NCBI GenBank assembly: GCA_964459635.1 | Contig: CAYWMQ010000002.1 | Coordinates: forward strand, 6,776 to 70,775 | DNA: 64,000 bases | DNA from: an uncultured Candidatus Saccharibacteria bacterium | GTDB taxonomy: Bacteria > Patescibacteriota > Minisyncoccia > Phycocordibacterales > UBA12088 | Direction: 5' to 3' | In this document: piece by piece, positions 6,979 through 46,174 of the stretch | How the letters are laid out: the number at the start of each line of letters is the position of its first letter | How positions within the stretch are numbered: position 1 is the first letter of the stretch | Translations under genes and position numbers: made by a program | The notes under the pieces: generated by a model | The model's input: only the letters and a program-made list of their open reading frames with translations | Told to the model about the DNA's origin: nothing | The model's database searches: none

Positions 6979-7086
6979 CGGACACGATACCAATCTGCGA
7001 ATGATACGAATGCAACGAATGTACTACGCGTTACGCGACTCGAACCCGCAACAAGCAGCGGAGTTGGCCAAGCTAGGGTGTGCAGC

Positions 7087-15000: not shown

Positions 15001-15076
15001 GGTGCGCGTGCCAGGGCTCGAACCTGGGACCGCCGAGGTATAAGCTCGGAGCTACTACCAACTGAGCTACACGCGC
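15001..15076 (-). tRNA. tRNA with anticodon UAU (reads AUA; tRNA-Ile2-like)
   Basis: Hand-folded from the reverse complement: acceptor GCGCGTG/CACGCGC, anticodon stem CCGAG/CTCGG, loop CTTATAC, T-loop TTCGAGC, discriminator A. Confidence 0.7.
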
Positions 15077-28949: not shown

Positions 28950-29486
28950 CTATCGCTCACGCAAGGGCAAACCGATATGTCGCAGGTATGCCTCCGCCTC
29001 GCCTCGCGTCTTTGCGGTGGTCACGAGGGTCACCGCAAAACCGAACACATCGCGCTGCTCCTCGTCGGCCGTCTCCGGGAAAATGGTGTGCTCACTCACG
29101 CCTATCGTGACGTTCCCCACCTCATCGATGGCTTTGGGAGAAAGGCCGCGGAAGTCGCGCGTGCGCGGAAAGGCGATGTGTATGAGCTTGTCTACAAAGT
29201 CGCGCATGCGTGCGCCGCGCAAGGTGATCTGGTACCCCACCACGTCACCCTGGCGCACCTTGAAAGACGCGATGGACTTCTTCGCACCGCGTGCAGCGGG
29301 CTTCTGTCCGGTAATACGCGCCAGTCTGTCTTGTATGAGCTCGATCTTTTTCGGGTCCGCCACTTTGCCCACCCCCACCGAGATTACCGCCTTTACGAGC
29401 TTGGGTGTTTGCATGGTGTTCTTGTACCCGTGCGTTTCGCGGAGCGCATCGTACACCGTCTTTTGTTTTTCGATGAGTGAAGCCAT
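28950..29486 (-). CDS. rplE: 50S ribosomal protein L5
   Basis: 178 aa; L5 signature. Confidence 0.9.
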
Positions 29487-29489
29487 GGT

Positions 29490-29804
29490 TTATGAGGAAA
29501 GTTTCGCGCCGCTCTTTTTTGCGATGCGTACACGTTTATCGTTTTCTTTGGACACTCCAACGCGCGTGGCTTTGCCGGACTTTGGGTCGCGGAGCCCCAC
29601 GTTTGACACATGAATGGGCGCAGCAAACTCAATAATGCCCCCGCCCTGCTTTGTTTGCTTGTTGGTCTTGCGGTGGCGCTTGTGGACATTGACGCCCTCC
29701 ACCACCACCTGATCGGTGGCAGGCAGTGCGCGGAGCACAGTACCGCTCTTCCCGCGGTCCTTGCCTGCTCGTATGATGACTGTGTCTCCTTTTCTTATTT
29801 TCAT
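29490..29804 (-). CDS. rplX: 50S ribosomal protein L24
   Basis: MKIRKGDTVII KOW-motif start chosen inside the longer ORF. Confidence 0.85.
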   Translation of the reverse strand: MKIRKGDTVIIRAGKDRGKSGTVLRALPATDQVVVEGVNVHKRHRKTNKQTKQGGGIIEFAAPIHVSNVGLRDPKSGKATRVGVSKENDKRVRIAKKSGAKLSS

Positions 29805-29848
29805 ACTGTAGTGATACAAATGCGACTCCTCGTTACCCGATACCAATC

Positions 29849-29980
29849 AACGAATGTGTACTTGTCCCGCCGTAGCTCGTTTGCGAAGGGGGGGGCGAAT
29901 GCTGCGAATAGATCCACCTATCTTGCTCTGACGCTGTGATCCATTCGTTGCATTCGTACCGTACTCGTGTAATTCGTATT
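29849..29980. repeat. ACGAATG ... CATTCGT inverted heptad array in the rplX-rplN spacer (180-bp intergenic gap inside the spc cluster)
   Basis: caacgaatg, ggcgaatgctgcgaatag, then ccattcgttgcattcgtaccgtactcgtgtaattcgtattg. It also contains the 16-nt block cccgccgtagctcgt shared with 36517..36535. Confidence 0.65.
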
Positions 29981-29983
29981 GTG

Positions 29984-30355
29984 TTATAGAACTTCCGGTG
30001 CCATGCTCGCTATCTTCTGGTACCCCATCTCGCCAAGCTCGCGCGGGACGGGGCCGAACACGCGGTTGGCGCGGGGCTCTTTCTTTGCCTTGTCCACGAT
30101 AACTACGGCGTTCTCATCAAAGCGGATGTAGCTTCCGTCCTTGCGGCGGAACGGCTGCGCACTGCGCACCACCACCGCTGTGAGGACGTCCTTTTTCTTC
30201 ACCGCCTTGCGCGGCTCTGCCACCTGCACGGAAAGAATAAGCAGATCACCAATGCGCGCGTAGCGTCTTTTGCTGCCGCCAAGTATCTTAAAGACGCGTC
30301 CGACCTTTGCGCCGGTGTTGTCTGCTATTTTGACGATGGATTGTGGCTGGATCAT
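29984..30355 (-). CDS. rplN: 50S ribosomal protein L14
   Basis: MIQPQS...AKVG..., 123 aa. Confidence 0.9.
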   Translation of the reverse strand: MIQPQSIVKIADNTGAKVGRVFKILGGSKRRYARIGDLLILSVQVAEPRKAVKKKDVLTAVVVRSAQPFRRKDGSYIRFDENAVVIVDKAKKEPRANRVFGPVPRELGEMGYQKIASMAPEVL

Positions 30356-30420
30356 GGATGAGTTTTGAGTGTAGAGTGGTCAGTGTAGAGCGCTCTGTCC
30401 TGTTGCGTGGTGCAAGCGAC

Positions 30421-30684
30421 TTATCGAACAACAGTGAAGTGCTTCAGCTTACTCATCGGACGGCACTCGCGGATGGTGACCTTGTCGCCCTCTTTTGCGG
30501 TGTTGCCCGCATCGTGTACATGGTAGCGCTTCACGCGCGAAATAAACTTGCGGTACTTCGGGTGCTTCACAAAGCGTGTCACCGCCACCACCACGGTATC
30601 TTTCATCTTTGCGGACACCACCACGCCCGTAAGCGTGCGGGGTGTCGTAGGTGCGGCGGTGCTTTGTGTGTTGGGAGTATTCAT
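30421..30684 (-). CDS. rpsQ: 30S ribosomal protein S17
   Basis: 87 aa; S17 fold sequence. Confidence 0.9.
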   Translation of the reverse strand: MNTPNTQSTAAPTTPRTLTGVVVSAKMKDTVVVAVTRFVKHPKYRKFISRVKRYHVHDAGNTAKEGDKVTIRECRPMSKLKHFTVVR

Positions 30685-30701
30685 GGGAAATGATACGAGA
30701 G

Positions 30702-30926
30702 CTATGCTACCTCTTCGGCCACCTCAGGTGCCGTGGCAGGCGTAGTGGCTTTTTTGGTCAAGATGCGCGCGATCGTCCTGCGGAGTATGCGGCCTTCTTT
30801 TGTGTTACGCACGCGACTGCCCGCCTGACCAAAACGAAACTGACGCAATGCCTCGCGCTTTTCAGCCAAAAGCTTGCCAAGGTCGTCGGCGCTCATCTTT
30901 TCCAGCTCTTTCATGTGCTTGTTCAT
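30702..30926 (-). CDS. rpmC: 50S ribosomal protein L29
   Basis: MNKHMKELEKMSADDLGKLLAEKREAL...; the start is ambiguous (30914 or 30926). Confidence 0.8.
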   Translation of the reverse strand: MNKHMKELEKMSADDLGKLLAEKREALRQFRFGQAGSRVRNTKEGRILRRTIARILTKKATTPATAPEVAEEVA

Positions 30927-30989
30927 ATGTTCTACAGGTGAGTGCTTGAATGGTATAGCACGCGCGCGCCTTTGCTGCAACGTGTCACA

Positions 30990-31409
30990 CTATGCACGGC
31001 TCGCGAAGCGTACGGCAACAGGCAGCTTTGCGCCCGCTTTCCGCAGGGCTTCCTTCGCTACGGCTTCGGAAACGCCGTCCACTTCAAACAGTACGCGCCC
31101 GGGAAGCACTTCAACCTCGTACGCCTCGACATCGCCCTTGCCCTTACCCATACCAACCTCGGCAGCCTTCTGCGTATATGGGCGGTCAGGGAAAATGCGA
31201 ATCCATGTGCGGCCGTTCTTTCCCAGTGCGCGACTGATGGTGCGACGGGCGGCCTCTATCTGATTGCTGCGGATGCGGCCCTGCTCGGTGGCCTTGATGG
31301 CAAAAGAGCCGAACGAAACCTCCGTGCCGCGCGTGGCCGCGTGACGGTACTGCAAGGCGTTGCGCCCGCGGTGCCATTTACGAAACTTTACTTTTTTGGG
31401 AAGCAGCAT
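30990..31409 (-). CDS. rplP: 50S ribosomal protein L16
   Basis: MLLPKKVKFRKWHRG... Confidence 0.9.
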   Translation of the reverse strand: MLLPKKVKFRKWHRGRNALQYRHAATRGTEVSFGSFAIKATEQGRIRSNQIEAARRTISRALGKNGRTWIRIFPDRPYTQKAAEVGMGKGKGDVEAYEVEVLPGRVLFEVDGVSEAVAKEALRKAGAKLPVAVRFASRA

Positions 31410-31419
31410 GGTGGTGGTG

Positions 31420-32094
31420 TTACGCGTTTTCTTCGCCCTCGAATATCTCGCCCTTGTATATCCAAACTTTCACCCCAATGAGACCGGTGTATGCGATGTA
31501 TGCCTCCGCGCGCGCAAAGTCTACGTCCGCGCGAAGCGTCTGGAGCGGCACGCGCCCGCGCTTGATCTCTTCGCTTCGGCTCATTTCGCTGCCGCCGATG
31601 CGGCCGGAAATGCCGATGCGCACGCCCAATACACCCCTGTTGGCCATCACCTTGTCGACCGTCTGCTTGAGGACGCGGCGAAACGGCATGCGCTTTTCAA
31701 GACCCTCAGCCACCATTTCGGCGACTATCTGCGCGTTTGCCTCGGGATTGCGCACCTCTTCGATATCAAACTTAACCTCTGCCGTATCGCCCGGTGAGAG
31801 CGTCGCCAGTTTCTTTGCTATTTCCTTTCGTATACGCTGAGCACCTTCGCCTGAGCGACCGATGATGAGGCCCGGACGCGCCGTCTTCACGATGATGCGC
31901 AGTATGCCGGCGTTGCGCTCTATCTCGATAGACGCAACGTACATGCCCTTGAGGCGCTTTTTGAGCCACTCACGGAGGAGTGTATCAGCACGAAGGTACT
32001 GCTTGTACTGCTTGCCGTCACGCACAAACCAGCGGCTCTTCCAGTCGCGTATGATGCCGATGCGTATGCCGTATGGATGTGCGATGTGAGTCAT
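31420..32094 (-). CDS. rpsC: 30S ribosomal protein S3
   Basis: KH and S3-C domains; 224 aa. Confidence 0.9.
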   Translation of the reverse strand: MTHIAHPYGIRIGIIRDWKSRWFVRDGKQYKQYLRADTLLREWLKKRLKGMYVASIEIERNAGILRIIVKTARPGLIIGRSGEGAQRIRKEIAKKLATLSPGDTAEVKFDIEEVRNPEANAQIVAEMVAEGLEKRMPFRRVLKQTVDKVMANRGVLGVRIGISGRIGGSEMSRSEEIKRGRVPLQTLRADVDFARAEAYIAYTGLIGVKVWIYKGEIFEGEENA

Positions 32095-32100
32095 AGAAGC

Positions 32101-32135
32101 GAGTAGAAAGTAGGAAGTAGCAAGTAGTAAGCAGC
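32101..32135. repeat. Five tandem AAGTAGn heptads (mRNA sense CTACTTn) filling the rplV-rpsC spacer
   Basis: gagtagaaagtaggaagtagcaagtagtaagcagc, read directly. Confidence 0.6.
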
Positions 32136-32141
32136 GCGGGA

Positions 32142-32486
32142 TTAACGATTTACCGGTTCGCGGTCGCGAAGCTCCACCTTCACATGCGAAGACTCGCGGT
32201 TGATGGGGGCGGCGCGACCGAACGCGCGAGGCATGTAGCGCGTAAAGGTCAGCCCCTTGTCGGCGGTAATGGTGGACACCACAAGCGACTCGTCCGTGCG
32301 GCTCGTGTCTTTCTGTCGTGCATTTGCAGCGGCGGATGCGATGAGCTTCTTGATGGGAAGCGCGGCCTTCTGCGGCATGTGCGTGAGGAGCGTGAGCGCT
32401 TCGTCCACCGTCTTACCGCGCACCACGTCTATGACGAGGCGCACCTTGCGCGGAGCTTGTCGATAGTTTTTTAGTGATGCTTTCAT
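32142..32486 (-). CDS. rplV: 50S ribosomal protein L22
   Basis: MKASLKNYRQAPRKVRLV start chosen inside the longer ORF. Confidence 0.85.
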   Translation of the reverse strand: MKASLKNYRQAPRKVRLVIDVVRGKTVDEALTLLTHMPQKAALPIKKLIASAAANARQKDTSRTDESLVVSTITADKGLTFTRYMPRAFGRAAPINRESSHVKVELRDREPVNR

Positions 32487-32535
32487 GTGATGATGTATTC
32501 GCGGCATTCGTACTCATTCGCAGATTCGTATCGTG

Positions 32536-32880
32536 CTATTTCTTACCGGTCGTCGTGGCTGCCTTGGCGGCCTTGGCTGCCTGTATCTCGGCGTCCTTGC
32601 GCTTCTGCTCAAGCTCCTTCTGGATCTTACCGCCGTGCCGTAGGAACTTCGTCGTCGGAGAAAACTCGCCAAGCTTGTGGCCCACCATGTCCTCCGTGCA
32701 GAGCACCTCCACGTGCGACTTGCCGTTGTGGACGCCAAACGTGAAGCCGACCATTTCGGGGCTGATGGTGCACGCGCGCGACCACGTGCGAATAACCCCG
32801 GTCGTTTGCGGCTTCTTGCCCTCTATCTTTTTCAAGACACGGGGGTCAACGTATGGTCCTTTCTTGAGTGAGCGTGACAT
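32536..32880 (-). CDS. rpsS: 30S ribosomal protein S19
   Basis: [12 protein letters not shown]... Confidence 0.9.
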
Positions 32881-32942
32881 GGTGTGTGATGACTGTGTGA
32901 GGTGCGCCTATACTACGCAACACCCCGAGTATTGTCAACGAA

Positions 32943-33788
32943 TTACGAACGTTTCTTACCAACCTTCCGCCGCGAGACGATGAGGGCGTTGCTGTACTTT
33001 TTCGGTGCGCGCGTCTTGTGCCCCTTGCCTGTGGGCTTGCCGAAGATGGATCGAGCTCGACGATGGCCGCGCCCTTGCCTGCCTTCACCGCCACCATGCG
33101 GGTGATCTACAGGGTTCATGACGGTACCGCGTACGGTCGGGCGCTTGCCGAGCCAGCGGCTGCGGCCGGCCTTGCCGAGCTTCACGAGCTGATGTTCATC
33201 GTTTGACACCACCCCGAGCGTAGCCCATGCCGCGCTGTTTACCTTGCGCACTTCTCCCGATGGCATCTTGAGGTGCGTATGGACGCCGTCCTGCGCTATC
33301 ACATCCGCACTGTTGCCCGCCGAGCGTGCAAAGCGTGCGCCTGCTCCCGGCTTGGTCTCGATGTTGTGAACCTGGGCACCGATGGGTACCGTACGAAGGG
33401 GCATACGTACGCCCGGTGCGGGCTTCGCCGTTTCGGACGCCACAAAGGTGTCGCCCACGCGCGCGTCCTTGTGTGCAAGAATATAGCGCCACTCGCCATC
33501 GGCATATACCACGAGGGCAATGTACGCGCTGCGGTTCGGATCGTACTCAATAGCGGTGATGCGTGCCGGAATATCCTTCTTTTCAAAGGTAAAGTCAACC
33601 GTGCGAAGCACGCGCTTGTGCCCGCCGCCCATGTGCCTGCTCGTAATGCGGCCCTGGCTGTTGCGGCCCGTGGCGCGCTTGCCGCCCTTGGTGAGCGCCT
33701 TCTTGGGCTTGGCGGAAGTCACCACGCTCTTGTACGAGCGAGTGGTCATGTGACGGCGCGACTGTGTTGTGGGACGATACTTTTTCAT
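32943..33788 (-). CDS. rplB: 50S ribosomal protein L2
   Basis: 281 aa, ...VMNPVDHPHGGGEGR... Confidence 0.9.
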   Translation of the reverse strand: MKKYRPTTQSRRHMTTRSYKSVVTSAKPKKALTKGGKRATGRNSQGRITSRHMGGGHKRVLRTVDFTFEKKDIPARITAIEYDPNRSAYIALVVYADGEWRYILAHKDARVGDTFVASETAKPAPGVRMPLRTVPIGAQVHNIETKPGAGARFARSAGNSADVIAQDGVHTHLKMPSGEVRKVNSAAWATLGVVSNDEHQLVKLGKAGRSRWLGKRPTVRGTVMNPVDHPHGGGEGRQGRGHRRARSIFGKPTGKGHKTRAPKKYSNALIVSRRKVGKKRS

Positions 33789-33806
33789 GGTATGAGACTG
33801 GTGCTT

Positions 33807-34202
33807 TTACAGGAGGTCTATCTTATCACCTTCCTTGAGGTACACGTGCGCTTTCTTGTACCCGCTTACCGTACCGCGACGACGGCGCGTGCGCGATATC
33901 TTGACGCGCGGCTGCACGCGGACCGTGTTGACCTTGACAGGCACGACGCCATACACCGCCTGCACTGCGTTCATGATGTCGCGCTTTGTCGCATCCACCG
34001 CCACATCAAATACATATACGCGGCGCTCAATGGCATACGTGGCCTTTTCGGTGATGCGCGGCGCGCGGAGGATGCGCTCAGGCGTTTTGGTGAGAGCGGC
34101 TGTCAGCTTGCCCTGCTTTGTGACGGCCTTTTTGCGCGCAGGCTTAGCCGCTGTACCCGCGTGCTTCTTCGCCTTTGTGTCTGATCTAGAAAAAATAGCC
34201 AT
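33807..34202 (-). CDS. rplW: 50S ribosomal protein L23
   Basis: MAIFSR... start chosen inside the longer ORF; a Lys/Ala-rich N-terminus followed by the L23 core. Confidence 0.85.
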   Translation of the reverse strand: MAIFSRSDTKAKKHAGTAAKPARKKAVTKQGKLTAALTKTPERILRAPRITEKATYAIERRVYVFDVAVDATKRDIMNAVQAVYGVVPVKVNTVRVQPRVKISRTRRRRGTVSGYKKAHVYLKEGDKIDLL

Positions 34203-34209
34203 GGTGGTG

Positions 34210-34893
34210 TTATTTAGCGGTGCGGGCGCGCTTTTCAAGCACTTCCACCGACTCTGCGGGCGATGCAATGATGAGGTACTTGTGGCGCAAGACTTCTACC
34301 GGATTGAGATTGCGTGCATCCTCAAGCATGATGTGGCCGAAGTTACGGAAGCTCTTCTTTGTTGCCTCGCCCGGCGCTGCGACCGCTACAAGGGCTGCAT
34401 TTTTGCGCTTGGTTGCAAGCGGCGCGAAACCGTCGACCTTCGCAAGCGCCATGAGCGTCTTATTCGCCTCGGCGGCCTTGGGCTCCGCAAATGCAAGCTC
34501 GTCCAGGAAGAGCACCTCGCCATCGGCAAGCTTGCGCGAAAGCACCGCATAGAGAGCCTGTACGCGCATCTTCTTGTTTATCTTCTGCGCGTATGAGCGC
34601 TCGTTGCGCGGGCCATGCGCCACGCCTCCCTTGGTCCAGATAGGGCTGCGGCGGCTGCCGTGGCGGGCGTTGCCCGTACCCTTCTGTTTCCATGGTTTCT
34701 TGCCCGTGCCGGACACTTCCGCGCGGTTCTTCGTGTGTGCGATGGGCGTACGAGCATTGGCCTGCATAGCGGTCACCACCTGGTGTACCAGATCTGCGTT
34801 CCACGCGGCACCGAATACAGCCTCGGGAAGATTGATCTCTCCCGCCTTAGTGCCTGCCGTGTTGTAGATAGTTGCTTTCATGGTGTGGGTCAC
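34210..34893 (-). CDS. rplD: 50S ribosomal protein L4
   Basis: 227 aa; L4 signature region. Confidence 0.9.
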   Translation of the reverse strand: MTHTMKATIYNTAGTKAGEINLPEAVFGAAWNADLVHQVVTAMQANARTPIAHTKNRAEVSGTGKKPWKQKGTGNARHGSRRSPIWTKGGVAHGPRNERSYAQKINKKMRVQALYAVLSRKLADGEVLFLDELAFAEPKAAEANKTLMALAKVDGFAPLATKRKNAALVAVAAPGEATKKSFRNFGHIMLEDARNLNPVEVLRHKYLIIASPAESVEVLEKRARTAK

Positions 34894-35016
34894 GATGCGA
34901 ATCTACGAATGGGTGCGAATGCTACGAATAAATGCTCTACCGGCGATACATTAAGAGTGTTGCATACGTTAGTAATTCATTCGCTGCATTCGTAACATTC
35001 GTTGATTAGTATCGTG
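34894..35016. repeat. Inverted array of ACGAATG / CATTCGT heptad-like repeats in the rplC-rplD spacer
   Basis: Four ACGAATG-type units face three to four CATTCGT units across a ~40-nt centre. It can fold as a long imperfect hairpin in the mRNA. Confidence 0.7.
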
Positions 35017-35625
35017 CTATTTTCCGCGTACCTCCACCAGCGAGCCGCGCCGCCCGGGCACCGCGCCGCGAATGTATAGGAGGTTCTTTTCGGGATCGAC
35101 GGCCACAACTGTCAAATTTTTCGTCGTTACGCGGTCACTGCCCATGCGTCCCGCCATGCGCATGCCCTTGGGAACGCGCCGGCGAAGACCGCCACCGATG
35201 GATCCGGGCTGACGCTCGTTGTGTTTCTGGCCGTGGCTACGGGGACCGCCCGAGAAATCGTGGCGCTTCACCACGCCTTGGTAGCCCTTGCCTTTCGACG
35301 TACCGGACACCATGACGACGTCGCCAACCGCAAACATATCGGCAACGGTCAAAACCGTACCGATCTCTTGGCTTACTGACTCGCCTGGAGCGGCCCGGTA
35401 TTCCTTGAAGTGCCTGAAAAGACCCTTCGGGCGCTGCGCCTTGTTGATGTGCTTCTCCTTAGCCTCGCCAAACGCAAGCTGTACAGCCGCGTAGCCATCC
35501 TTTTCGGGCGTTTTGAGCTGCGTTACGGTATTCGGGGTAGCCAAAAGCACCGTGGCAGGGTGTACGCGCCCGTCTGCATCGAATATTTGGGTCATATGCT
35601 GCTTGGTGGCGAGAATGAATTTCAT
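35017..35625 (-). CDS. rplC: 50S ribosomal protein L3
   Basis: 202 aa, L3 signature. Confidence 0.9.
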   Translation of the reverse strand: MKFILATKQHMTQIFDADGRVHPATVLLATPNTVTQLKTPEKDGYAAVQLAFGEAKEKHINKAQRPKGLFRHFKEYRAAPGESVSQEIGTVLTVADMFAVGDVVMVSGTSKGKGYQGVVKRHDFSGGPRSHGQKHNERQPGSIGGGLRRRVPKGMRMAGRMGSDRVTTKNLTVVAVDPEKNLLYIRGAVPGRRGSLVEVRGK

Positions 35626-35676
35626 GACGCGATACGAATCAACGAATGGGTACGAATGCTACGAATGTGGTACGTA

Positions 35677-35697
35677 CAAAAAAGCCCGCACCGGGCC
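35677..35697 (-). terminator. Intrinsic terminator / attenuator-like hairpin in the rplC 5' leader
   Basis: Minus-sense ggcccggtgcgggc followed by TTTTTT, located between a candidate minus-strand promoter (about 35785..35795) and the rplC start. A CATTCGT array follows it. Confidence 0.55.
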
Positions 35698-35815
35698 AAG
35701 CGCCGGTAGGGCGAAAGGTCCAGTGGTTCCCGCCTCTCAGCTTGGGAACATGGAAGCAGCGTGAAGCTGCGTATAGGCTCATGCACTATACACGAAGGGC
35801 TTTGGGAATGCAAAT

Positions 35816-35844
35816 TTGACTTTTTCTCTGATATTTGCTATAAT
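35816..35844 (+). promoter_or_regulatory. Near-consensus sigma70-type promoter (TTGACT-17-TATAAT)
   Basis: Read directly in the sequence; it drives the small membrane-protein ORF at 35892. Confidence 0.6.
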
Positions 35845-35891
35845 ATTAAATTGAAGTGTCCCGCACTTTTCCACATAAGTAGGAGGACAAA

Positions 35892-36143
35892 ATGATGGTA
35901 GTCCTATGGTTGGCGTTGGTCACTGTTGCTGGGACGGTCCTGGGCGCCTTCGTTACGGTGCCGGTGCTGCTCATCGTCACAGTGATTGCTATGTCCGTAG
36001 TGCTTTGGTGCTATCTCAAAAATCCTTCGGCCATTTACGGACCATCGGCGGCCGGCCTCATTGCTGGTATGTGGTTCATGTATTTCCTCACCACCCACGA
36101 TGCGGCAGCGCGAACGTTCGTCGACACGTACATCTTGCGGTAG
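35892..36143 (+). CDS. Small hydrophobic membrane protein (83 aa), hypothetical
   Basis: Strong SD TAGGAGGAC; two to three TM helices. Confidence 0.45.
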   Translation: MMVVLWLALVTVAGTVLGAFVTVPVLLIVTVIAMSVVLWCYLKNPSAIYGPSAAGLIAGMWFMYFLTTHDAAARTFVDTYILR

Positions 36144-36179
36144 ATCGAGCAAGCGAAAGAAGAAGGAGTAGGAGCGGCC

Positions 36180-36374
36180 ATGTTCATTTTGCGTAGCCTC
36201 GACAAGAACGGCAAGCGTGTATACCGCACACGCAACGGCGGTTGGAGCACGCATCGGAACGATGCGTGCAGATACGAATCCCACGAGTTTGCGCAACGCG
36301 TAGCTCGACGGACGACGCCGCCGGCGCGCAACGCGCGTGTTGAGATTGAGTCTGTGCGCGAGAAGGAAAAGTAA
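36180..36374 (+). CDS. Small basic hypothetical protein (64 aa)
   Basis: SD GAAGGAG upstream; a hairpin follows at 36431..36456. Confidence 0.35.
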   Translation: MFILRSLDKNGKRVYRTRNGGWSTHRNDACRYESHEFAQRVARRTTPPARNARVEIESVREKEK

Positions 36375-36674
36375 GCGAAGAGTTGCAGATTCCTAGATCA
36401 GACCGATTCGAGTAAGCAAACGCGTCTCGCATCACGGCTCACCTTCGGGTGAGCCGTGAACTGTTTGTAGCTACCTGAAATTGTTGATAGTCTCCATTTT
36501 CGCTGATATCCGCGCGTGTCCGCCGTAGCTCGTGGGGACAACGAATGCGGGTGGTATCCGCGTCTAGCATCCAGCCTCCGCTAGAGCTACCTGCCTACCG
36601 GCAGGTAGGCGGATTACGTGGGATCTAAGTCGCCCCCACCCTGCTACGCCGGAGGCGACGCAGGTTCTAAAAAA

Positions 36675-37664
36675 CTGTGAATTACGAAACTCCTCCCCAC
36701 CCCTTTGCACCATACACCCCAAACACACCCGTTAGGGTGTAGCACGTACGCTTGATTGTCACACACACGAAGGAAATTGATTGTGCCTACGCGAGCACGA
36801 ATGAAAGAAGTGCGTAGAGATAGTTTGCGAAGTACCCATTCACTGAGCGCGGAAGTGAGGTAACGAGACCGTGGAACAGCTTCAGGTTGCGGAAGTCGAA
36901 CTCGATGTCAAAGCGTTTCTTGTAGAGGTGGAGCTGCCAAGCCTCGGCGAGCTTCTTCATGTTTTTGTACGGCTTGATGAGCACCCACCGCCGGTCGTTG
37001 TTCATGTCGCGCTCAAGTTGCTTTGACACGTACCCCGCATCCGCAACGATGATGCCCTCGATGTATTCGTTGATCTTGCGGAAGATGTCGCGGTCATCCG
37101 CGTTGGCGGGCGTGAAGCGGAGCGCGAGGAGACGTCCCGCAGCATCCCGTGTCATGGTCATTTTAAGGCCGAAATAGAAGCCTTTTCCAGAGTGGCCCCA
37201 TGCGGCGAGTCCGGCCATGGTCTTGTGGTGTTTACCGTTCTTGGTGAGACACACGGGTATATCGGTCGCATCGGTGTACTTCACGATGTGCTGGTCCTTG
37301 TGCCCGAGCCGCATGAGGTATGCAAGGATCAGGAACACCAGACGGGCTGCACGATTGATCGCCTCCACAAACGTCTTGTACGAGCAAGGTATCGCTTCCT
37401 TGAAGTCGTCATATACGGACTTCTTAGTAGCGCGTGTTGACTGATGCCAGTACAGGCCCCAAATGACCGCGTCCAAGGGATTGATGGCTAATGGTCGACC
37501 CACCCTCTTTCCTTCGGGGAGGATGTGGAGTTTTTGTGCTATGTGTGTGACAATGTGCGTGAGGTTGTCCCATATCTTTGGGAACATACAATACAAGAGG
37601 CTCCATACGGAGCCTTTTGTATTGTATCGAAATGCAGTGCGGGAGGGAGTTTCGTAATTCACAG
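36675..37664. mobile_element. IS982-like insertion sequence (990 bp) with 24-bp imperfect terminal inverted repeats and a 7-bp TAAAAAA target-site duplication
   Basis: IRL ctgtgaattacgaaactcctcccc matches IRR (reverse complement ctgtgaattacgaaactccctccc). Direct repeats TAAAAAA at 36668..36674 and 37665..37671. A single DDE transposase ORF lies inside. Confidence 0.75.
36787..37587 (-). CDS. DDE transposase (IS4/IS5 superfamily, IS982-like)
   Basis: 267 aa from MFPKIWDNL; the length and single-ORF organisation are typical of IS982-family elements. The DDE catalytic triad was not identified. Confidence 0.7.
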   Translation of the reverse strand: MFPKIWDNLTHIVTHIAQKLHILPEGKRVGRPLAINPLDAVIWGLYWHQSTRATKKSVYDDFKEAIPCSYKTFVEAINRAARLVFLILAYLMRLGHKDQHIVKYTDATDIPVCLTKNGKHHKTMAGLAAWGHSGKGFYFGLKMTMTRDAAGRLLALRFTPANADDRDIFRKINEYIEGIIVADAGYVSKQLERDMNNDRRWVLIKPYKNMKKLAEAWQLHLYKKRFDIEFDFRNLKLFHGLVTSLPRSVNGYFANYLYALLSFVLA

Positions 37665-37681
37665 TAAAAAAGGCTACAACC

Positions 37682-37709
37682 AAAACGCCGGCCTTGCGGC
37701 CGGCGTTTT
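37682..37709 (-). terminator. Intrinsic terminator downstream of rpsJ
   Basis: aaaacgccggcc-ttgc-ggccggcgtttt hairpin. Confidence 0.7.
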
Positions 37710-37720
37710 GGTAAGTCTTT

Positions 37721-38095
37721 CTAAGACATTTTCACATCAATGTTCACACCTGAGGGAAGGGAGAGGTTCGTGAGAGCCTCAATGACTTTCCCCGATGGGT
37801 TCATGATGTCGATAACCCGCTTGTGCACCCTCATCTCGAACTGTTCTCGCGCATCTTTGTCGATGAAGGCCGCGCGGTTTACCGTGTATTTCTTTATTTC
37901 CGTGGGCAGGGGCACCGGGCCGACCACCTCCGCATCGTACCGCATGGCCGTATCCATGATCTGCTTGATGCTCGCGTCGAGTATCTTGTGCTCGTACGCG
38001 CGGATGCGGATGCGGAGCTTCGTTGCGGGCGCCTCTCCCTGCTTGGCCTTCGGGGCCCTTTTGGCGGTCTTGGGTGCGGTAGGAGCTGCTGCCAT
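37721..38095 (-). CDS. rpsJ: 30S ribosomal protein S10 (with an Ala/Pro/Lys-rich N-terminal extension)
   Basis: ...LRIRIRAYEHKILD... S10 core. Confidence 0.9.
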   Translation of the reverse strand: MAAAPTAPKTAKRAPKAKQGEAPATKLRIRIRAYEHKILDASIKQIMDTAMRYDAEVVGPVPLPTEIKKYTVNRAAFIDKDAREQFEMRVHKRVIDIMNPSGKVIEALTNLSLPSGVNIDVKMS

Positions 38096-38116
38096 GGTGG
38101 TGGGAAGCCGCGCCGG

Positions 38117-39322
38117 TTAGGCGACGACCTTTGTTACGACACCTGCGCCAACGGTCTTGCCGCCTTCGCGAATAGCGAAACGCTGCTGTTCCTCAAGCGC
38201 GACAGGAGCCACGAGCTTCACCTTGAAGGTGACGGTGTCACCCGGCATCACCATTTCCACGCCCTCGGCGAGTGTCACCTCACCTGTCACGTCTGTCGTG
38301 CGCACGTAGAACTGGGGCTTGTAACCCGAGAAGAACGGCGTATGGCGGCCACCCTCTTCCTTCTTGAGGATGTATACCTCGGCCTCAAACTCGGTGTGCG
38401 GGGTCACGGAGCCTGTCTTTGCAAGCACCTGGCCGCGATGCACATCATCCTTCTTGGTGCCGCGTAGCAGCACGCCCGCGTTGTCGCCCGCGCGGCCCTC
38501 GTTGAGCTGCTTGTTGAACATTTCAATACCGGTCACCGTGGTCTTGGTGGTGTCCTTGATACCGACGATCTCCACTTCCTCTCCCACCTTCACGATACCG
38601 CGCTCGATGCGGCCCGTGACCACCGTACCGCGGCCTTCAATGGAGAATATGTCCTCGATAGGCATGAGGAAGGGCTTCTCCACATCGCGCACCGGCTCGG
38701 GAATGTAGGTGTCGAGCGTATCAATGAGCTCGATGATCTTCTTCGCCCACTCATCGTCCGCGCTCGTAGCCTCAAGCGCCTTAAGGCCGGAACCGCGAAT
38801 GATAGGCGCGTTCTTGCCGTCAAAGTTGTTCTTGTCGAGAAGCTCGCGGAGCTCTTCTTCAACGAGGTCGAGCATGTCGGGATCGTCCACCATGTCGCAC
38901 TTGTTGAGGAACACGATGATCTTCGGCACACCGACCTGGCGTGCAAGGAGTACGTGCTCACGAGTCTGCGGCATCGCGCCGTCCGTGGCCGCCACCACCA
39001 AGACCGCGCCGTCCATCTGGGCTGCGCCGGTGATCATGTTCTTAATGTAGTCGGCGTGGCCGGGCGCGTCGATGTGCGCGTAGTGCCTGTTCGGCGACTC
39101 GTACTCGCTGTGGTGGAGCGCAATGGTAATACCGCGCGCCTTTTCCTCGGGCGCGTTGTCGATACCGTCAACGCCCTCAATGCGTGCGTTGTAGCCCTTG
39201 TCTTTCGCAAGGTTACCCAGCACATGGAGGATCGCTGCGGTCGTGGTCGTCTTGCCGTGGTCAACGTGGCCGATGGTGCCTACGTTCACGTGCGGCTTGG
39301 ACCGATCGAATGCTTCTGCCAT
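38117..39322 (-). CDS. tuf: Elongation factor Tu
   Basis: [18 protein letters not shown] motifs; start chosen at [11 protein letters not shown] with a GGAAGGAG SD. Confidence 0.95.
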
Positions 39323-39514
39323 GGTCGTTCGCGTTATGCTCCTTCCGAAGTTCAGGGCGCGAGAACGGTGCCTCAACACCGGAAGGTGCGGATAATAATT
39401 CGCCCGGGTGTCGCTGCCTGCCGGGTACGTTCGCGTACGCGCTCGATCCGGCTGTGCTCCGCGCCTTCCGCAGAGAGCACAATGACAAAAAACACACGCA
39501 GTGCGGTACACGGC

Positions 39515-39542
39515 ATAATACCGCACAGGCGCTGCAAGTCAA
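39515..39542 (-). promoter_or_regulatory. Candidate tuf promoter (minus-sense TTGACT-16-TATTAT)
   Basis: Seen in the reverse complement of the tuf leader, about 190 nt upstream of the start codon. Confidence 0.5.
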
Positions 39543-39595
39543 GGAAAAGTGAAGTGAGAAGTGGGCAGTGGTTAGTGAAAAGTGAAAAGACTCAT
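39541..39595. repeat. Seven to eight tandem heptad repeats (plus strand AAGTGAn; mRNA sense CACTTnn) directly upstream of the tuf -35
   Basis: gtgaagtgagaagtgggcagtggttagtgaaaagtgaaaag, read directly. Confidence 0.65.
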
Positions 39596-39747: not shown

Positions 39748-41274
39748 CTATAGGCACCGTTCGCACATATCTGCAACGGGGCTTCGCTCCCCATGCTGTA
39801 AGATGACGTGCCCGTAGAGGGGGTTGCCATACAGTTTGACCGCTACGTGGGCGAGACCGCAGTTGCTTGGCGAGAGATATTTATTGTCCAACTGAGCGAA
39901 GTTGCCCAGGACGACAATTTTAGATCCCAGTCCAATGCGGGTTCCAATGGTCTTCGCCTGATGTGGCGTGAGGTTTTGTACCTCATCCACAGTCACAAAC
40001 GCCCGTGTATAGCTGCGCCCACGCACAAACGCGAATAAGTTGACCTCGAATAGGCCCGCCAGCGTCCGCTCCATTTGTTGCTGTTGGGCGCGCTTGGTGT
40101 TTTCAGTACCGGCGGTGGGTCCGTCACTCTTGCCACGACGCCCGTTCCCTTGCCTATGTACCTGCTCCGTCAAGGCTTCTGCTATGATCTCAAGGTTGTC
40201 GTACAGCGCCTTGTGCCACGGTGTGCCCTTCCCAGGCTCATCCCCCGGAAGTGCACCCGGATCAGTATCAACCGGGACCATGGCACGAGTGACAACAGCC
40301 TTGCGATACCGTCCGACAGCATGCGGTGGCTTAGACGAATGCATATCAAAGGCGACGTTCTGCGCGACCGCGGCGGCTGCCGTCATGAGGCTTTTACCTG
40401 TCCCCGCCCTTCCTATTAAGGTTACGAACGGGATGGTGGGGTCCATGAGCAAGTTCAACGCAGCTATTTGCTCGGCACTTCTTGCACAAATACCGGCCAC
40501 GTTGTTCTGCGGAAGCGAGTAGTCTACGGACCGCTCCAGAAGAACGTGGTCGTCGTGGATTTGACGCACAATGAAGTGCCGGCCGTCGCCGTATAGGAAG
40601 TTGTTAATCTGCACAGGCGCAGGAAGTGCTAGCTCATCCGTCTTGAGCCGAAAAAGCTTGCGTGGGTTTCCTTCACCACCCGCAGCCACCAGATGCTCCC
40701 AATACGCACTGTGTAACTTCACAAGGCCGGTCTCAAGCACGTCCGTGTCTTTGATTACCATGTCGCTCTGGTAATCCTCGACATGCACCCCCAGCGCATC
40801 TGCTTGGATGCGCATATTATTATCGTTTGATACCAGCACCACATCGCGGTACGCGTGGCCCAGGTACTCATTCGACAGAAGCTTTGCTCCGGCGATGATC
40901 CTGTCGTCTGCACTTGCTTCGTCAAGCGCCAGCATGCGGACCATCTCACACACGGGAGCGGTGATGATAATCAACTGACTCTCCGTGGAAGAGTCTCCCC
41001 CGTTGGTCGGGTACCGCTTCCCAATGTTGGGCAGTACCACGGTGCCCTTCGCTTGGGCGTTGCGCCCGGTAATGTTCGTAATAATACGCGACACCTCGCG
41101 CGCATTCTGCGCAACATCGCTATCCCCAAGCTTGACCCCCGTTTTTTTTCGATCAAGCTCTTTAAGAACCGTGATCGAAATGGCCACGTCGTGAGGAGCA
41201 AACCTGTATATGGCCTGTGGATCGTGCAAAAGCACGCTCGTATCCAACACGAAAAGCTTCTTCGCGACGTCCAT
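39748..41274 (-). CDS. PhoH-like ATPase with N-terminal PIN domain (YlaK-like)
   Basis: N-terminal FVLDTSVLLHDP PIN motif; central GRAGTGKS Walker A of PhoH-family ATPases. Confidence 0.8.
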   Translation of the reverse strand: MDVAKKLFVLDTSVLLHDPQAIYRFAPHDVAISITVLKELDRKKTGVKLGDSDVAQNAREVSRIITNITGRNAQAKGTVVLPNIGKRYPTNGGDSSTESQLIIITAPVCEMVRMLALDEASADDRIIAGAKLLSNEYLGHAYRDVVLVSNDNNMRIQADALGVHVEDYQSDMVIKDTDVLETGLVKLHSAYWEHLVAAGGEGNPRKLFRLKTDELALPAPVQINNFLYGDGRHFIVRQIHDDHVLLERSVDYSLPQNNVAGICARSAEQIAALNLLMDPTIPFVTLIGRAGTGKSLMTAAAAVAQNVAFDMHSSKPPHAVGRYRKAVVTRAMVPVDTDPGALPGDEPGKGTPWHKALYDNLEIIAEALTEQVHRQGNGRRGKSDGPTAGTENTKRAQQQQMERTLAGLFEVNLFAFVRGRSYTRAFVTVDEVQNLTPHQAKTIGTRIGLGSKIVVLGNFAQLDNKYLSPSNCGLAHVAVKLYGNPLYGHVILQHGERSPVADMCERCL

Positions 41275-43567: not shown

Positions 43568-43741
43568 ATGACAGGATGCTAATTTTACTAATGACGTACG
43601 AATGCAACGAATAATTGACCCGTACGGTATGAATAAAAATCCGCGCAACGCGGTAGGTGACGACACTATACCGTGCGTTGACGGAATACTCAAGAGGTGA
43701 TTAGGTGTGGGCAGACGCAACAGCTGGGAAGGACGTGCGTA

Positions 43742-44233
43742 ATGAACGTAATCTGTAGGGGCATCTTAACGCGCTGGCCTGTCGTCAAAACCAGAATCTA
43801 CGACGACCATGAGAACGGCATAATTTTTGCGCAGAACGACCCTGAATTACTCAAGTTCGTGGCAACAAGAAAAATGACGCAAATCGTCGCGCAATTGCTT
43901 GGCCTGCGACTCTATGCGGGCTCTGACGACACACGTGTGGATTGGACCGACCGGTACGCAATAGAAGTGCCCATCAGTACCTCGGGTATGGAAACGCGTG
44001 AGCCTGAGCGGTTTGCTCTAGTTGTACCGAACTATGATGCTCGTATTGAAACCTCGGAGACCATTGTCCGCGTGCCCATTGACGAAATCGATTCTACAGA
44101 CTTGCCGGCTGTCACACAGGCGATTTGTGACGCGGTTCAAAAGGCACGGGAACCGCACGAAGCACGAGCAAAAATATACGAAGCACGAGCAAAAATATAT
44201 CGTGTGGTTGAGGAACTCTTTGCATCTACCTAG
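43742..44233 (+). CDS. Hypothetical protein (164 aa) in lower-GC insert
   Basis: ORF carrying an internal 21-bp tandem duplication (44158..44199) that encodes EARAKIYEARAKIY; intrinsic terminator at 44266..44297. Confidence 0.4.
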   Translation: MNVICRGILTRWPVVKTRIYDDHENGIIFAQNDPELLKFVATRKMTQIVAQLLGLRLYAGSDDTRVDWTDRYAIEVPISTSGMETREPERFALVVPNYDARIETSETIVRVPIDEIDSTDLPAVTQAICDAVQKAREPHEARAKIYEARAKIYRVVEELFAST

Positions 44234-44487
44234 TCCGTTGCTAGATTCGACCACCTGATTTAAGAAGCGGAGCCGCACAGCAGCTCCGCTTTTTTTGGCG
44301 ACCCACAGCAAAGAAGTTCCGTGGAACAAAGAAGCGATGTGTTGGGATAAGCGTATGTTGGATTGGGGTGAGTGAGGGTGACAACGACCGCGTACACGCG
44401 AGCACGTGCGGCGAATTGAACGAACAACCGTTGACGCTGCGCCTATACGCAGATAGGCTCAAAATAGTCACAGGGAGCACGTATGCA

Positions 44488-44697
44488 ATGTGTTGTAACT
44501 CGTCACTTTTCGGACTCGGCTTTTGGGCGATCGGACGGTTTCCCACGGACACAGACGCACGCGGCACATTTTGGATGTCAGGCGGATACACCTTTGCGGT
44601 GCGACCCGATGGAATACGCATGCAGGCCAACGGCAACCGCTCCTGTGAACTCATGGGTTTGGGCTATGTGGAGCGTGAATTCAATCGTGCGGCATAG
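44488..44697 (+). CDS. Small hypothetical protein (about 69 aa; start uncertain)
   Basis: ORF ends 5 nt before a strong terminator (44703..44728). An overlapping alternative frame exists, so reading-frame choice is uncertain. Confidence 0.3.
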   Translation: MCCNSSLFGLGFWAIGRFPTDTDARGTFWMSGGYTFAVRPDGIRMQANGNRSCELMGLGYVEREFNRAA

Positions 44698-44807
44698 TGT
44701 CACGCGGCGCCTCGGCGCCGCTTTTTATATTTGACTTTTCTTCAGAGAAGTTGTATCATGAATTAGGCACACAAAACATACACGCAGTGGAAGTGGGAGC
44801 ACACACG

Positions 44808-45299
44808 ATGGAAGTTTTCGTTCGGGAAACCGGCAAAAAGCCGGTCATTGCTACGCTTGAGGGACAGTCTCTCAAGTACACATCGTCAGATGGTGCTACT
44901 CGCAGAGTTGAGGTCGCTGGCGAGGCGATTGTGGGGCTGAAGCGTTTGTCCGAACTTGGCAGCTTATATCCCGCCTCCCGTGATCTTATTCTCGTCGTCG
45001 ATCGCGCAGACGAGCCCGTCACCCATGTGCAGCCTGAAATATGGCTGATGGCATCAGAAACGCAGGTGCACATGCACTTTGCCTCATTGCCGGCGTGGTC
45101 CTTGCACTGGTACGGTGGCGAACGCACGCAGGAACAAGAACTGTGGCATCTTGCCGACACCTTAGCCGAAGGGGCATTAGATTTTGCGTCTGCTATTGCG
45201 ATGCTCGACGTACTCTGTGCGAACCTTCGCACACGTGCCCATGAGGTGCTGGTGTCTAAATGCCAGAAATTAGAACGGGGCGAAAACACAGCTGACTAA
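44808..45299 (+). CDS. Hypothetical protein (163 aa) in lower-GC insert
   Basis: SD GGAAGTGGGAG upstream of MEVFVRETG; terminator at 45331..45361. Confidence 0.4.
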   Translation: MEVFVRETGKKPVIATLEGQSLKYTSSDGATRRVEVAGEAIVGLKRLSELGSLYPASRDLILVVDRADEPVTHVQPEIWLMASETQVHMHFASLPAWSLHWYGGERTQEQELWHLADTLAEGALDFASAIAMLDVLCANLRTRAHEVLVSKCQKLERGENTAD

Positions 45300-46128: not shown

Positions 46129-46174
46129 ATCTCGATACTAATCTACGAATTTCTACGAATACTGCGAATTAATG

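Follow-up and report, generated by a model that had tools for sequence, protein, structure and literature searches.

The S10 operon of E. coli starts with a structured leader through which L4-mediated attenuation takes place. In IS10 and IS50, fold-back inhibition relies on a stem-loop that forms only in transcripts begun outside the element and that sequesters the transposase start, and phage "morons" are self-contained modules composed of promoter, gene and terminator. Elements of the IS982 family are 845–1282 bp in length (mean 996) and carry a single transposase ORF of about 257–326 aa (mean ~290), with inverted repeats containing 11–32 identical bp and direct target repeats of 2–10 bp; "AC" tips occur in 57/69 family members, and the repeat consensus is AC(N)6T(N)5TT (PMC7335449).

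The window analysed here (the whole stretch of DNA, 64 kb) contains a locus in which the ribosomal protein genes rpsJ and rplC are separated by 2095 bp. rpsJ (ribosomal protein S10; 37721..38095, minus strand; Pfam Ribosomal_S10, E = 7e-31) is the last gene of a tuf-rpsJ unit, with tuf located 21 nt upstream of it, and rplC (L3; 35017..35625, minus strand; Pfam Ribosomal_L3) is the first gene of an rplC-rplD-rplW-rplB... block. We consider it quite probable that the gap between them was built in three layers: an old split between the two transcription units, then the arrival of a cassette of about 850 bp, and then the insertion of an insertion sequence (IS).

The insertion sequence and its empty site

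A bidirectional hairpin was found 3' of rpsJ (37679..37712), with a perfect 15-bp stem that contains 10 GC pairs (core CGCCGGCC/GGCCGGCG) and with U-rich tails on both strands, the core stem being followed downstream by UUUUGGUUGU on the rpsJ strand and by UUUUGGUAAGUC on the opposite strand. This GC-rich stem-loop followed by a U-run corresponds to an intrinsic (rho-independent) terminator, in agreement with an earlier note on this DNA that ended the tuf-rpsJ unit at this point. The 990-bp IS that the same note had located directly after the terminator was also confirmed: it occupies positions 36675..37664 (minus strand; tips CTGTG...CACAG) and is bounded by inverted repeats matching at 22/24 bp (36675..36698 and 37641..37664; CTGTGAATTACGAAACTCCTCCCC and CTGTGAATTACGAAACTCCCTCCC, respectively). 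Two occurrences of a 19-mer from the repeat were counted in the window, and none in 100 shuffles.

The element is flanked by two copies of TAAAAAA, on the spacer side (36668..36674) and on the rpsJ side (37665..37671). In Logan contig L009, which derives from a strain 98.3–99.4 % identical, both flanks are joined by exactly one TAAAAAA. This empty site fixed the length of the IS to the base and established that the duplication is real and not coincidental. The filled site was independently assembled in SRR13617028 (contig L003). Since filled and empty alleles occur in strains that are 98–99 % identical, the insertion is recent and polymorphic, and the comparison of both alleles supports the mobility of the element; the recent transposition proposed from the sequence thus held, and it also agrees with the intact DDE transposase and with assemblies that break at the IS ends (see below). 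The L009 allele could in principle be the product of precise excision instead of the ancestral state.

The IS (a DDE element) was inserted into an A/T run, 8 bp past the rpsJ terminator hairpin, with duplication of 7 bp, and the terminator was left untouched. The insertion is flanked by two transcription units that converge on it and interrupts neither a gene nor a signal, which makes it probably near-neutral. The empty-site strain already has the structured spacer described below, which makes the IS the most recent of at least three layers. The locus provides, for an uncultured CPR-like lineage, an example of an active IS that is defined to the base and verified by comparison.

Family membership, copy number and start-codon stem-loop

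The transposase gene (36787..37587, minus strand) encodes a 266-aa DDE protein (D106, D183, E229) that matched Pfam DDE_Tnp_1_3 (E = 6e-25; PF13612 score 88.5 bits, cut-off 27). The best-scoring NCBIfam family was NF033520 (IS982; E = 4e-31), with 108.4 bits, below the curated cut-off of 130. The protein has more than 1400 homologues, mostly of 264–270 aa among the 120 matches listed, and its three catalytic-type residues D106, D183 and E229 are invariant across 19 clade members (alignment A1). Members of the IS982 family include IS1592, ISAba825 and IS982B. D183, E229 and K236 align with both IS1592 and a Vibrio IS982 transposase, and D106 aligns with D in the former and with G in the latter. 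By tblastn, 281 plasmid records were matched at 28–33 % identity, and the best annotated plasmid records among the matches listed are labelled "IS982 family transposase".

In several respects the element resembles IS982. Its 990 bp with a single 266-aa ORF fall within the family length ranges, as do its 22/24-bp inverted repeats and 7-bp direct repeat, and its transposase aligns end to end with that of IS1592 at 30 % identity. It differs from the family in its short transposase (266 aa vs a mean of ~290), without the extensions that IS1592 has at both the N- and the C-terminus, in its CTGTG tips instead of AC, in a repeat that deviates from AC(N)6T(N)5TT, and in a conserved stem-loop over the transposase start codon. 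The NCBIfam score below cut-off and the absence of "AC" tips indicate a divergent clade, and by these sequence comparisons the element is IS982-like, closest to IS982. The earlier label "IS982-like" therefore stands as far as the nearest family by Pfam and NCBIfam is concerned, and plain "IS982" would be an overstatement (108 vs 130 bits; tips CT, not AC).

Six other insertions of the same clade have identical CTGTG...CACAG tips and 6–7-bp duplications. Across these seven independent insertions the duplications are AT-rich and the tips read CTGTGAAT(T/A)ACGAAACTCC; repeat mismatches like those in the 22/24 pair studied here are typical of the clade. An alternative boundary, ACTGTG...CACAGT, would give a 4–5-bp duplication and bring the tips into line with the IS982 "AC" rule. 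It was rejected: the base flanking CTGTG is T in one of the insertions (L190), which places the A outside the IS, and this boundary would also spoil the repeat symmetry in another (L096). The earlier note had further likened the IS repeat to an ACGAATG family of spacer repeats. This was not borne out, as the common part is merely ACGAA, and the repeat sequence is kept in IS copies from unrelated metagenomes, which indicates that it belongs to the IS.

Further copies and solo inverted repeats, which the note had suggested searching for, were not found within the 64-kb window; exact-sequence look-ups of the transposase in its 266-aa and 298-aa versions gave nothing on record, and the IS repeat pattern had 0 matches in viral contigs. 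The single copy in the window, the lack of an exact transposase elsewhere and the imperfect inverted repeats would be expected if the IS were a fixed, inactive relic and the L009 allele a precise excision or a mis-assembly. We regard this as very unlikely, since the transposase ORF is unbroken and its DDE residues are invariant, the mismatches are those usual for the clade, and the L009 junction is base-exact with one duplication copy. Moreover, 11 contigs from ten sequencing runs end 28–29 nt into an IS end, at both ends of the element, and two contigs break within the IS. Contigs that stop at this distance inside IS ends in a k=31 graph are expected of a multi-copy repeat. An active element is therefore preferred, and its presence in several copies is suggested by the assembly break points.

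A 19-bp stem-loop (37586..37627, minus strand; z = -4.8) buries the transposase start codon. An equivalent stem of 13–19 bp and different sequence was found elsewhere in the clade (L095, L096, L184 and L194), and in two of these cases (L096 and L194) it ends 6–7 nt ahead of the AUG. This evidence consists of individual folds; the MAFFT/RNAalifold consensus was poor owing to a shift in alignment register. The transposase is read in the same direction as rpsJ, and the stem-loop would probably block its translation from read-through transcripts. As in IS10/IS50, the stem-loop lies near an IS end, would form solely in transcripts begun outside the element and is predicted to sequester the transposase start; in contrast to those elements, there is no Shine-Dalgarno (SD) sequence to occlude here, just the AUG itself. 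Together with the CTGTG ends and the AT-rich 6–7-bp duplication of the clade, the start-codon stem may aid annotation of the more than 1400 metagenomic homologues.

The small-ORF cassette

The second layer would be a cassette of ~850 bp (35816..~36667) that entered the gap on the opposite strand. Its sigma-70 promoter is close to consensus and precedes two orphan ORFs with SD sites, after which come a UUCG hairpin terminator and a rod-like structured tail. The two ORFs would encode a membrane protein (83 aa) and a basic protein with an alpha/beta fold (64 aa). The predicted sigma-70-type promoter (TTGACT-17-(TGc)TATAAT; 35816..35844, plus strand) is the best sigma-70 consensus match in the window, being one of three 11/12 matches in 64 kb and the sole one of the three with a TGn. 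It is followed on the same strand by the SD sequence TAGGAGG (35880..35886), by orf83 (35892..36143), for which two long hydrophobic helices are predicted, and by orf64 (36180..36374), with a single-sequence AF2 pLDDT of 90.5. Both ORFs, the textbook promoter with its SD and the hairpin-rich 300-bp region next to them were thus found as the earlier note had described them.

SD sites were confined to orf83 and orf64 among the 19 genes checked, the host anti-SD lying outside the window, and the neighbouring ribosomal genes have none. This difference in translation signals between the cassette and the host ribosomal genes suggests a foreign origin of the cassette. Its GC content is not deviant, and the GC of orf83 by codon position (0.54/0.43/0.70) is host-gene-like. 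SD-less ribosomal genes next to an SD-led cassette offer a small testable hint on foreign gene expression in such hosts.

No homologues of orf83 or orf64 were found in 5.8 billion clusters and 1.84 billion representatives, orf64 matching itself alone among 5.8 billion proteins, and searches of both against Pfam, NCBIfam, PHROGs, PADLOC and PDB sequences gave nothing usable. A weak DUF2849 match (E = 0.0013) was discarded for being below cut-off, and two exhaustive HMMER matches (P0123 and P0124) for being translations of tandem-repeat DNA. The predicted fold of orf64 was similar to those of small uncharacterised phage proteins at TM 0.6–0.7, with E >= 0.014 and hence not significant. By blastn the cassette had no match in phages and plasmids. 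This lack of homologues and of Pfam, PHROG or PADLOC matches, together with a 130-aa antisense ORF that is also open across orf83 and orf64, would agree with both ORFs being chance frames in a long non-coding spacer or a regulatory RNA. We consider such an origin improbable: promoter, SD sites, tandem ORFs and hairpin terminator are correctly ordered and spaced, GC3 is higher than GC2, a pattern also seen in host genes, orf64 reached its pLDDT from a single sequence, the two helices predicted for orf83 are clean, and both ORFs are included in Logan contig gene calls.

The transcript of orf83 and orf64 is likely terminated at a hairpin (36432..36459, plus strand) that pairs perfectly over 12 bp around a C(UUCG)G loop and in which an L009 SNP at 36452 preserves a G-U pair on the plus strand only. 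The hairpin-rich spacer as a whole (36375..36674) had fold z-scores of -4.9 (plus) and -5.7 (minus) over 200 shuffles each. Within it, the structured part 36466..36667 (z = -3.0 on the plus strand and -4.4 on the minus strand) folds on the minus strand into a rod-like imperfect hairpin of ~160 nt whose MFE and centroid structures are about the same. Positions 36495..36667 are identical in the empty-site strain, whose contig L009 reaches 36433, short of both ORFs. Rfam searches, at the gathering threshold over the window and at E <= 10 over 35500..37800, returned only chance-level matches in the region. The possibility that the rod-like element is a MITE derived from the present IS was rejected, its ends being unlike the IS repeats and no second copy being present in the window, and chance was taken to explain a 13-nt repeat that occurs both in the promoter spacer and at 36497..36509.

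The cassette resembles phage morons in having its own promoter, a terminator hairpin and translation signals unlike those of its neighbours, as well as in the orf64 fold, whose resemblance to small phage proteins comes from the non-significant matches mentioned above. It differs from them in lacking a prophage context, a phage or plasmid DNA match and a deviant GC content.

The split between rpsJ and rplC

According to the earlier note, the IS and the small ORFs broke the S10 operon. In most bacteria sampled rpsJ and rplC are 0–130 bp apart, and in the ~75 fetched loci with both genes the gap ranges from 0 to 643 bp, without a match to the IS, orf83 or orf64 in any of these gaps. These short distances, and the 2095-bp gap filled with foreign-looking DNA found here, favour a continuous S10 operon that was cut by the IS and the small-ORF module, after which rplC gained a new promoter. 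However, the closest CPR relatives that have no insertion (L015, L016, L017, L105 and L107) show a terminator hairpin 3' of rpsJ and, ahead of rplC, a promoter-like site, and so are already split at this point; hence neither the IS nor the ORFs caused the break in the operon. The rpsJ terminator is intact upstream of the IS, the empty-site allele places the IS last, and the rplC promoter sequence is common to L016. We therefore regard a cut operon as highly improbable and already largely refuted.

The preferred reading is that the split is the oldest layer: by comparison with these relatives, the tuf-rpsJ unit would have ended at an intrinsic terminator, and the rplC block would have started from its own promoter and structured leader, before the cassette and the IS arrived. 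The tuf-rpsJ | rplC split would be a lineage trait and not damage caused by the IS, and the gap between terminator and promoter a safe landing pad. Current understanding of IS biology and of operon evolution is left unchanged, and the insertion is an ordinary, well-documented mobile-element event. The nearest relatives are distant (rpsJ up to 82 %, rplC 55–58 % identity), and an rplC scan gave no relative above 58 % in genome contigs or above 57 % in metagenome contigs; as a consequence, both when the cassette arrived and where it came from are only loosely constrained.

The earlier claim of a separate, divergent promoter and a leader for rplC was upheld. The putative promoter (TTGCAT-17-TATAGT; 35785..35813, minus strand) lies back-to-back with the plus-strand promoter of the cassette; its motif TTGCATT...TGTATAGTGCATG is conserved in L016, with which it has a 13-mer and a 7-mer in common. 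The rplC leader (35626..35778, minus strand; fold z-score = -1.5) contains two hairpins and four ATTCGT repeats, and no SD. An attenuator-like hairpin (35684..35712) is followed by a U6 run (35678..35683) and then by the four repeats.

Like the E. coli S10 leader, that of rplC has a hairpin and a U-run immediately before the gene that opens an L4-encoding ribosomal protein block. It differs from the E. coli leader in preceding rplC and not rpsJ, and in the absence of sequence or Rfam similarity, no Rfam match to the rplC leader having been found. In a wider proposal, the ~850-bp module would be a horizontally acquired, self-contained cassette in a host that uses no SD sites for its own highly expressed genes, and the rod, perfectly conserved between strains, a new ncRNA or a mobility or attachment structure of the cassette; separately, the rplC leader could be a CPR-specific L4-type attenuator moved from rpsJ. 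As a whole we consider this unlikely. Qualitatively, a similar leader with a hairpin and a U-run precedes rplC in L015 and L019, and it is less clear in L016.

Gene order and the gap between rpsJ and rplC

The ribosomal genes of the window lie on the minus strand in the order tuf (38117..39322), rpsJ (37721..38095), a gap of 2095 bp, rplC (35017..35625), rplD, rplW, rplB and onward. The best protein matches of rplC, rpsJ and tuf in representative genomes were Patescibacteria/CPR MAGs (identities of 55-58 %, up to 82 % and up to 85 %, respectively), and a metagenome scan with rplC detected no relative above 57 % identity. These distant matches indicate that the host, whose GC content in the window is 57 %, is an isolated CPR-like lineage. 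A promoter-like TTGACT-16-TATTAT lies ~220 nt 5' of tuf, at ~39542(-). Its presence suggests that tuf and rpsJ form an independent unit of two genes, bounded by a promoter and a terminator of its own. The str/S10 super-cluster is also interrupted elsewhere (39748..41274 and 43697..45299): fusA and tuf are separated by a PIN+PhoH gene, and rpsG and fusA by two unannotated ORFs of 178 and 200 aa on the opposite strand. Another feature of the window, at 15001..15076(-), is a tRNA-Ile whose anticodon, TAT (UAU), is seldom seen in bacteria.

The earlier note had proposed that the S10 operon was broken between rpsJ and rplC by an insertion sequence (IS) and two small ORFs (orf83 and orf64). The distance between both genes was 0-643 bp in ~75 fetched genome loci holding them, and no match to the IS, orf83 or orf64 was found in any of 80 fetched loci. 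However, in insertion-free CPR relatives, rpsJ is already followed by a hairpin and rplC preceded by a promoter-like site. Locus L016 contains a perfect bidirectional hairpin 3' of rpsJ, and L105 and L107 contain AAAAACCACCTTT...AAAGGTGGTTTTT followed by TTGAAA-17-TAATCT, an arrangement similar to that of L015 and L017. L016 and the window (35813..35778, minus strand) have in common TTGCATT, 15-16 nt and TGTATAGTGCATG; the chance expectation of a common 13-mer at this position was estimated at ~0.001. This common motif argues that the rplC promoter is older than the cassette, the ~850-bp stretch bearing both small ORFs, and implies the same of the transcriptional break. The IS and the cassette would then occupy an older terminator-promoter gap that they did not create, and the proposed breakage of the operon by them could not be sustained.

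The claim that rplC has its own promoter and leader did stand. The leader (35626..35778) is structured, with two hairpins and no SD, and comprises a terminator-like hairpin with U6 (35678..35712) and an unstructured tract of 50 nt with four ATTCGT repeats; L015 and L019 also contain a strong hairpin and U-run directly 5' of rplC. It has an attenuator-like look, as the E. coli S10 leader does, a resemblance that we regard only as a lead; its fold z-score was -1.5, and Rfam gave no match to it. ACGAAT/ATTCGT repeats are clustered in spacers of the r-protein cluster. They occur as short TACGAAT(G)/ATTCGTA repeats just upstream of rplC, rplD, rpsG and others (35630..35670, 34893..35003, 32504..32533, 29838..29972, 46144..46160, 43596..43612 and 7005..7022), with ATTCGT on the sense strand, and may represent a lineage-specific translation or spacer signal. 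Kinship of these repeats with the IS inverted repeat, which had been suggested from their resemblance, was rejected: only ACGAA is common to both, and the IS repeat sequence is kept in IS copies from unrelated samples.

Insertion and affiliation of the IS

All structural details reported for the IS were present at the locus. It spans 990 bp (36675..37664) with 22/24-bp inverted repeats at both ends and TAAAAAA on either side, and the window contains exactly two copies of a 19-mer of the inverted repeat, versus none in 100 shuffles. The exact rpsJ protein look-up retrieved 15 contigs, and the places of ten of them were examined. Nine (L005-L008 and L010-L014) were 100 % identical to the window and ended at 37637, 28 nt into the IS. 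The tenth, L009 (Logan SRR14126295), gave the decisive result. It aligns to 39551..37665 at 99.4 % and next directly to 36674..36433 at 98.3 %, both alignments overlapping by 7 bases, and its junction reads ...GGTTGTAGCC TTTTTTA GAACCTGCG..., with the heptamer in single copy. This uninterrupted site is the comparison by which the earlier note had proposed to refute its claim; it indicates that the IS is real, that the duplication is not coincidental and that the insertion is probably recent. On the rplC side, L002 ended 29 nt into the opposite IS end, L001 and L004 ended within the IS, and L003 covered it whole. In a k=31 graph, a repeat sequence shared by several copies makes contigs stop after nearly k-1 nt of it (28-29 of 30). 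Since the observed breaks lie 28-29 nt inside the IS ends, as such a graph predicts, the IS would be multi-copy in the samples of the broken contigs. No further complete copy of the exact IS came up, either in the window search or in exact transposase look-ups.

The IS carries a single ORF, coding for a protein of 266 aa from the ATG at 37587. This start was backed by >1400 metagenomic homologues, the best 120 of which were mostly 264-270 aa, with query coverage of 89-100 % (98-100 % for nearly all). The transposase matched DDE_Tnp_1_3 in Pfam (E = 6e-25) and IS982 best in NCBIfam (E = 4e-31), with IS5 far behind (7e-12). A tblastn search against plasmids retrieved 281 records at 28-33 % identity; among the top matches listed, the annotated ones were 'IS982 family transposase'. 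D106, D183 and E229 were invariant in an alignment of 19 clade members; of these, D183 and E229 are matched in alignments with the transposases of IS1592 and Vibrio IS982 (30 % identity) as well, the counterpart of D106 being D in the former and G in the latter. IS982 members are 845-1282 bp long, with inverted repeats of 11-32 bp, direct repeats of 2-10 bp, transposases of about 257-326 aa and 'AC' tips in 57/69 members (PMC7335449). The IS falls within all these ranges, but its tips are CTGTG, without the usual 'AC', and its NCBIfam score of 108 bits is under the curated cut-off of 130 bits. IS982 is therefore the nearest family, but canonical membership was not supported, and we file the element as a probable divergent IS982-like clade.

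Related IS copies (transposase identity 74-94 %), read within their own contigs, all had the tips CTGTG...CA(C/A)AG and AT-rich target sites. Six of them have duplications of 6 bp (TTGGTA in L095, AATCTA in L096 and GTTGTA in L191) or 7 bp (AAAATCA in L184, TCATATT in L190 and TCTATCA in L194), which makes a duplication of 7 bp, as seen in the window, typical of the clade. Four metagenome contigs of a 77 %-identical relative (L186, L188, L189 and L193) join the left flank of one insertion to the right flank of another. Such mixed flanks point to chimeric assembly or to recombination between copies, and they confirm that this relative is multi-copy.

A 19-bp stem (37586..37627; z = -4.8) includes in its 3' arm the AU of the transposase AUG. 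In L095, L096, L184 and L194, a 13-19-bp stem of different sequence occupies the equivalent position, ending at the AUG or 6-7 nt ahead of it. The IS has the same orientation as the tuf-rpsJ unit, which is highly expressed; on the model of IS10 and IS50, the stem would therefore block translation of the transposase from read-through transcripts.

The cassette on the opposite strand

Homology of the window with L016 stops at the -35 element of the rplC promoter. The strong promoter and SD attributed to the small ORFs were confirmed: 2 bp beyond this element, on the other strand, lies TTGACT-17-TGcTATAAT (35816..35844), one of three consensus matches at 11/12 in 64 kb and the sole one with a TGn extension. 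It is followed by TAGGAGG, orf83 (35892..36143), GAAGGAGTAGGAG, orf64 (36180..36374), a perfect 12-bp C(UUCG)G hairpin (36432..36459) and a folded tract of ~200 nt, forming on the minus strand a predicted ~160-nt rod (z = -4.4) with nearly the same MFE and centroid folds.

Among 19 genes checked, a canonical, normally spaced SD precedes only orf83 and orf64 (35880..36179). SD-like motifs were found in none of 14 r-protein genes (rpsJ, rplC..rplE) nor in fusA, and in tuf and PIN-PhoH the only such motif is a weak one of AAGG type, GGAAGGAG of tuf lying ~16 nt upstream. The r-protein gene starts (29017..39322) show ...CACC ATG, a context poor in G. In rpsL, the ORF at 12860 and others, a TATACT box lies 4-7 nt ahead of the ATG, which suggests leaderless mRNAs for these genes.

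Both ORFs are orphans, an exhaustive search giving only two tandem-repeat DNA translations. They nevertheless look coding, judging from GC by codon position as in host genes, the single-sequence prediction of a beta-beta-alpha-beta fold for orf64 (pLDDT 90.5, pTM 0.73) and the two long hydrophobic helices predicted for orf83. A PDB structure search with the orf64 model found no neighbour. The model aligned full-length with dozens of uncharacterised phage proteins of 55-80 aa (TM 0.6-0.7, E >= 0.014), a hint, not proof, of mobile origin; DNA searches of the cassette against phages and plasmids gave no match.

The window and the L009 spacer differ by four SNPs, all in 36452..36494, and are identical in 36495..36667. 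The SNP in the UUCG hairpin changes U-A to U-G on the plus strand, whereas the minus strand is left with an A-C mismatch; since pairing is kept on the plus strand only, the hairpin fits a plus-strand terminator. Contig L200 (SRR13617039) ends in non-repetitive sequence at ~36168, between orf83 and orf64, which could reflect strain variation.
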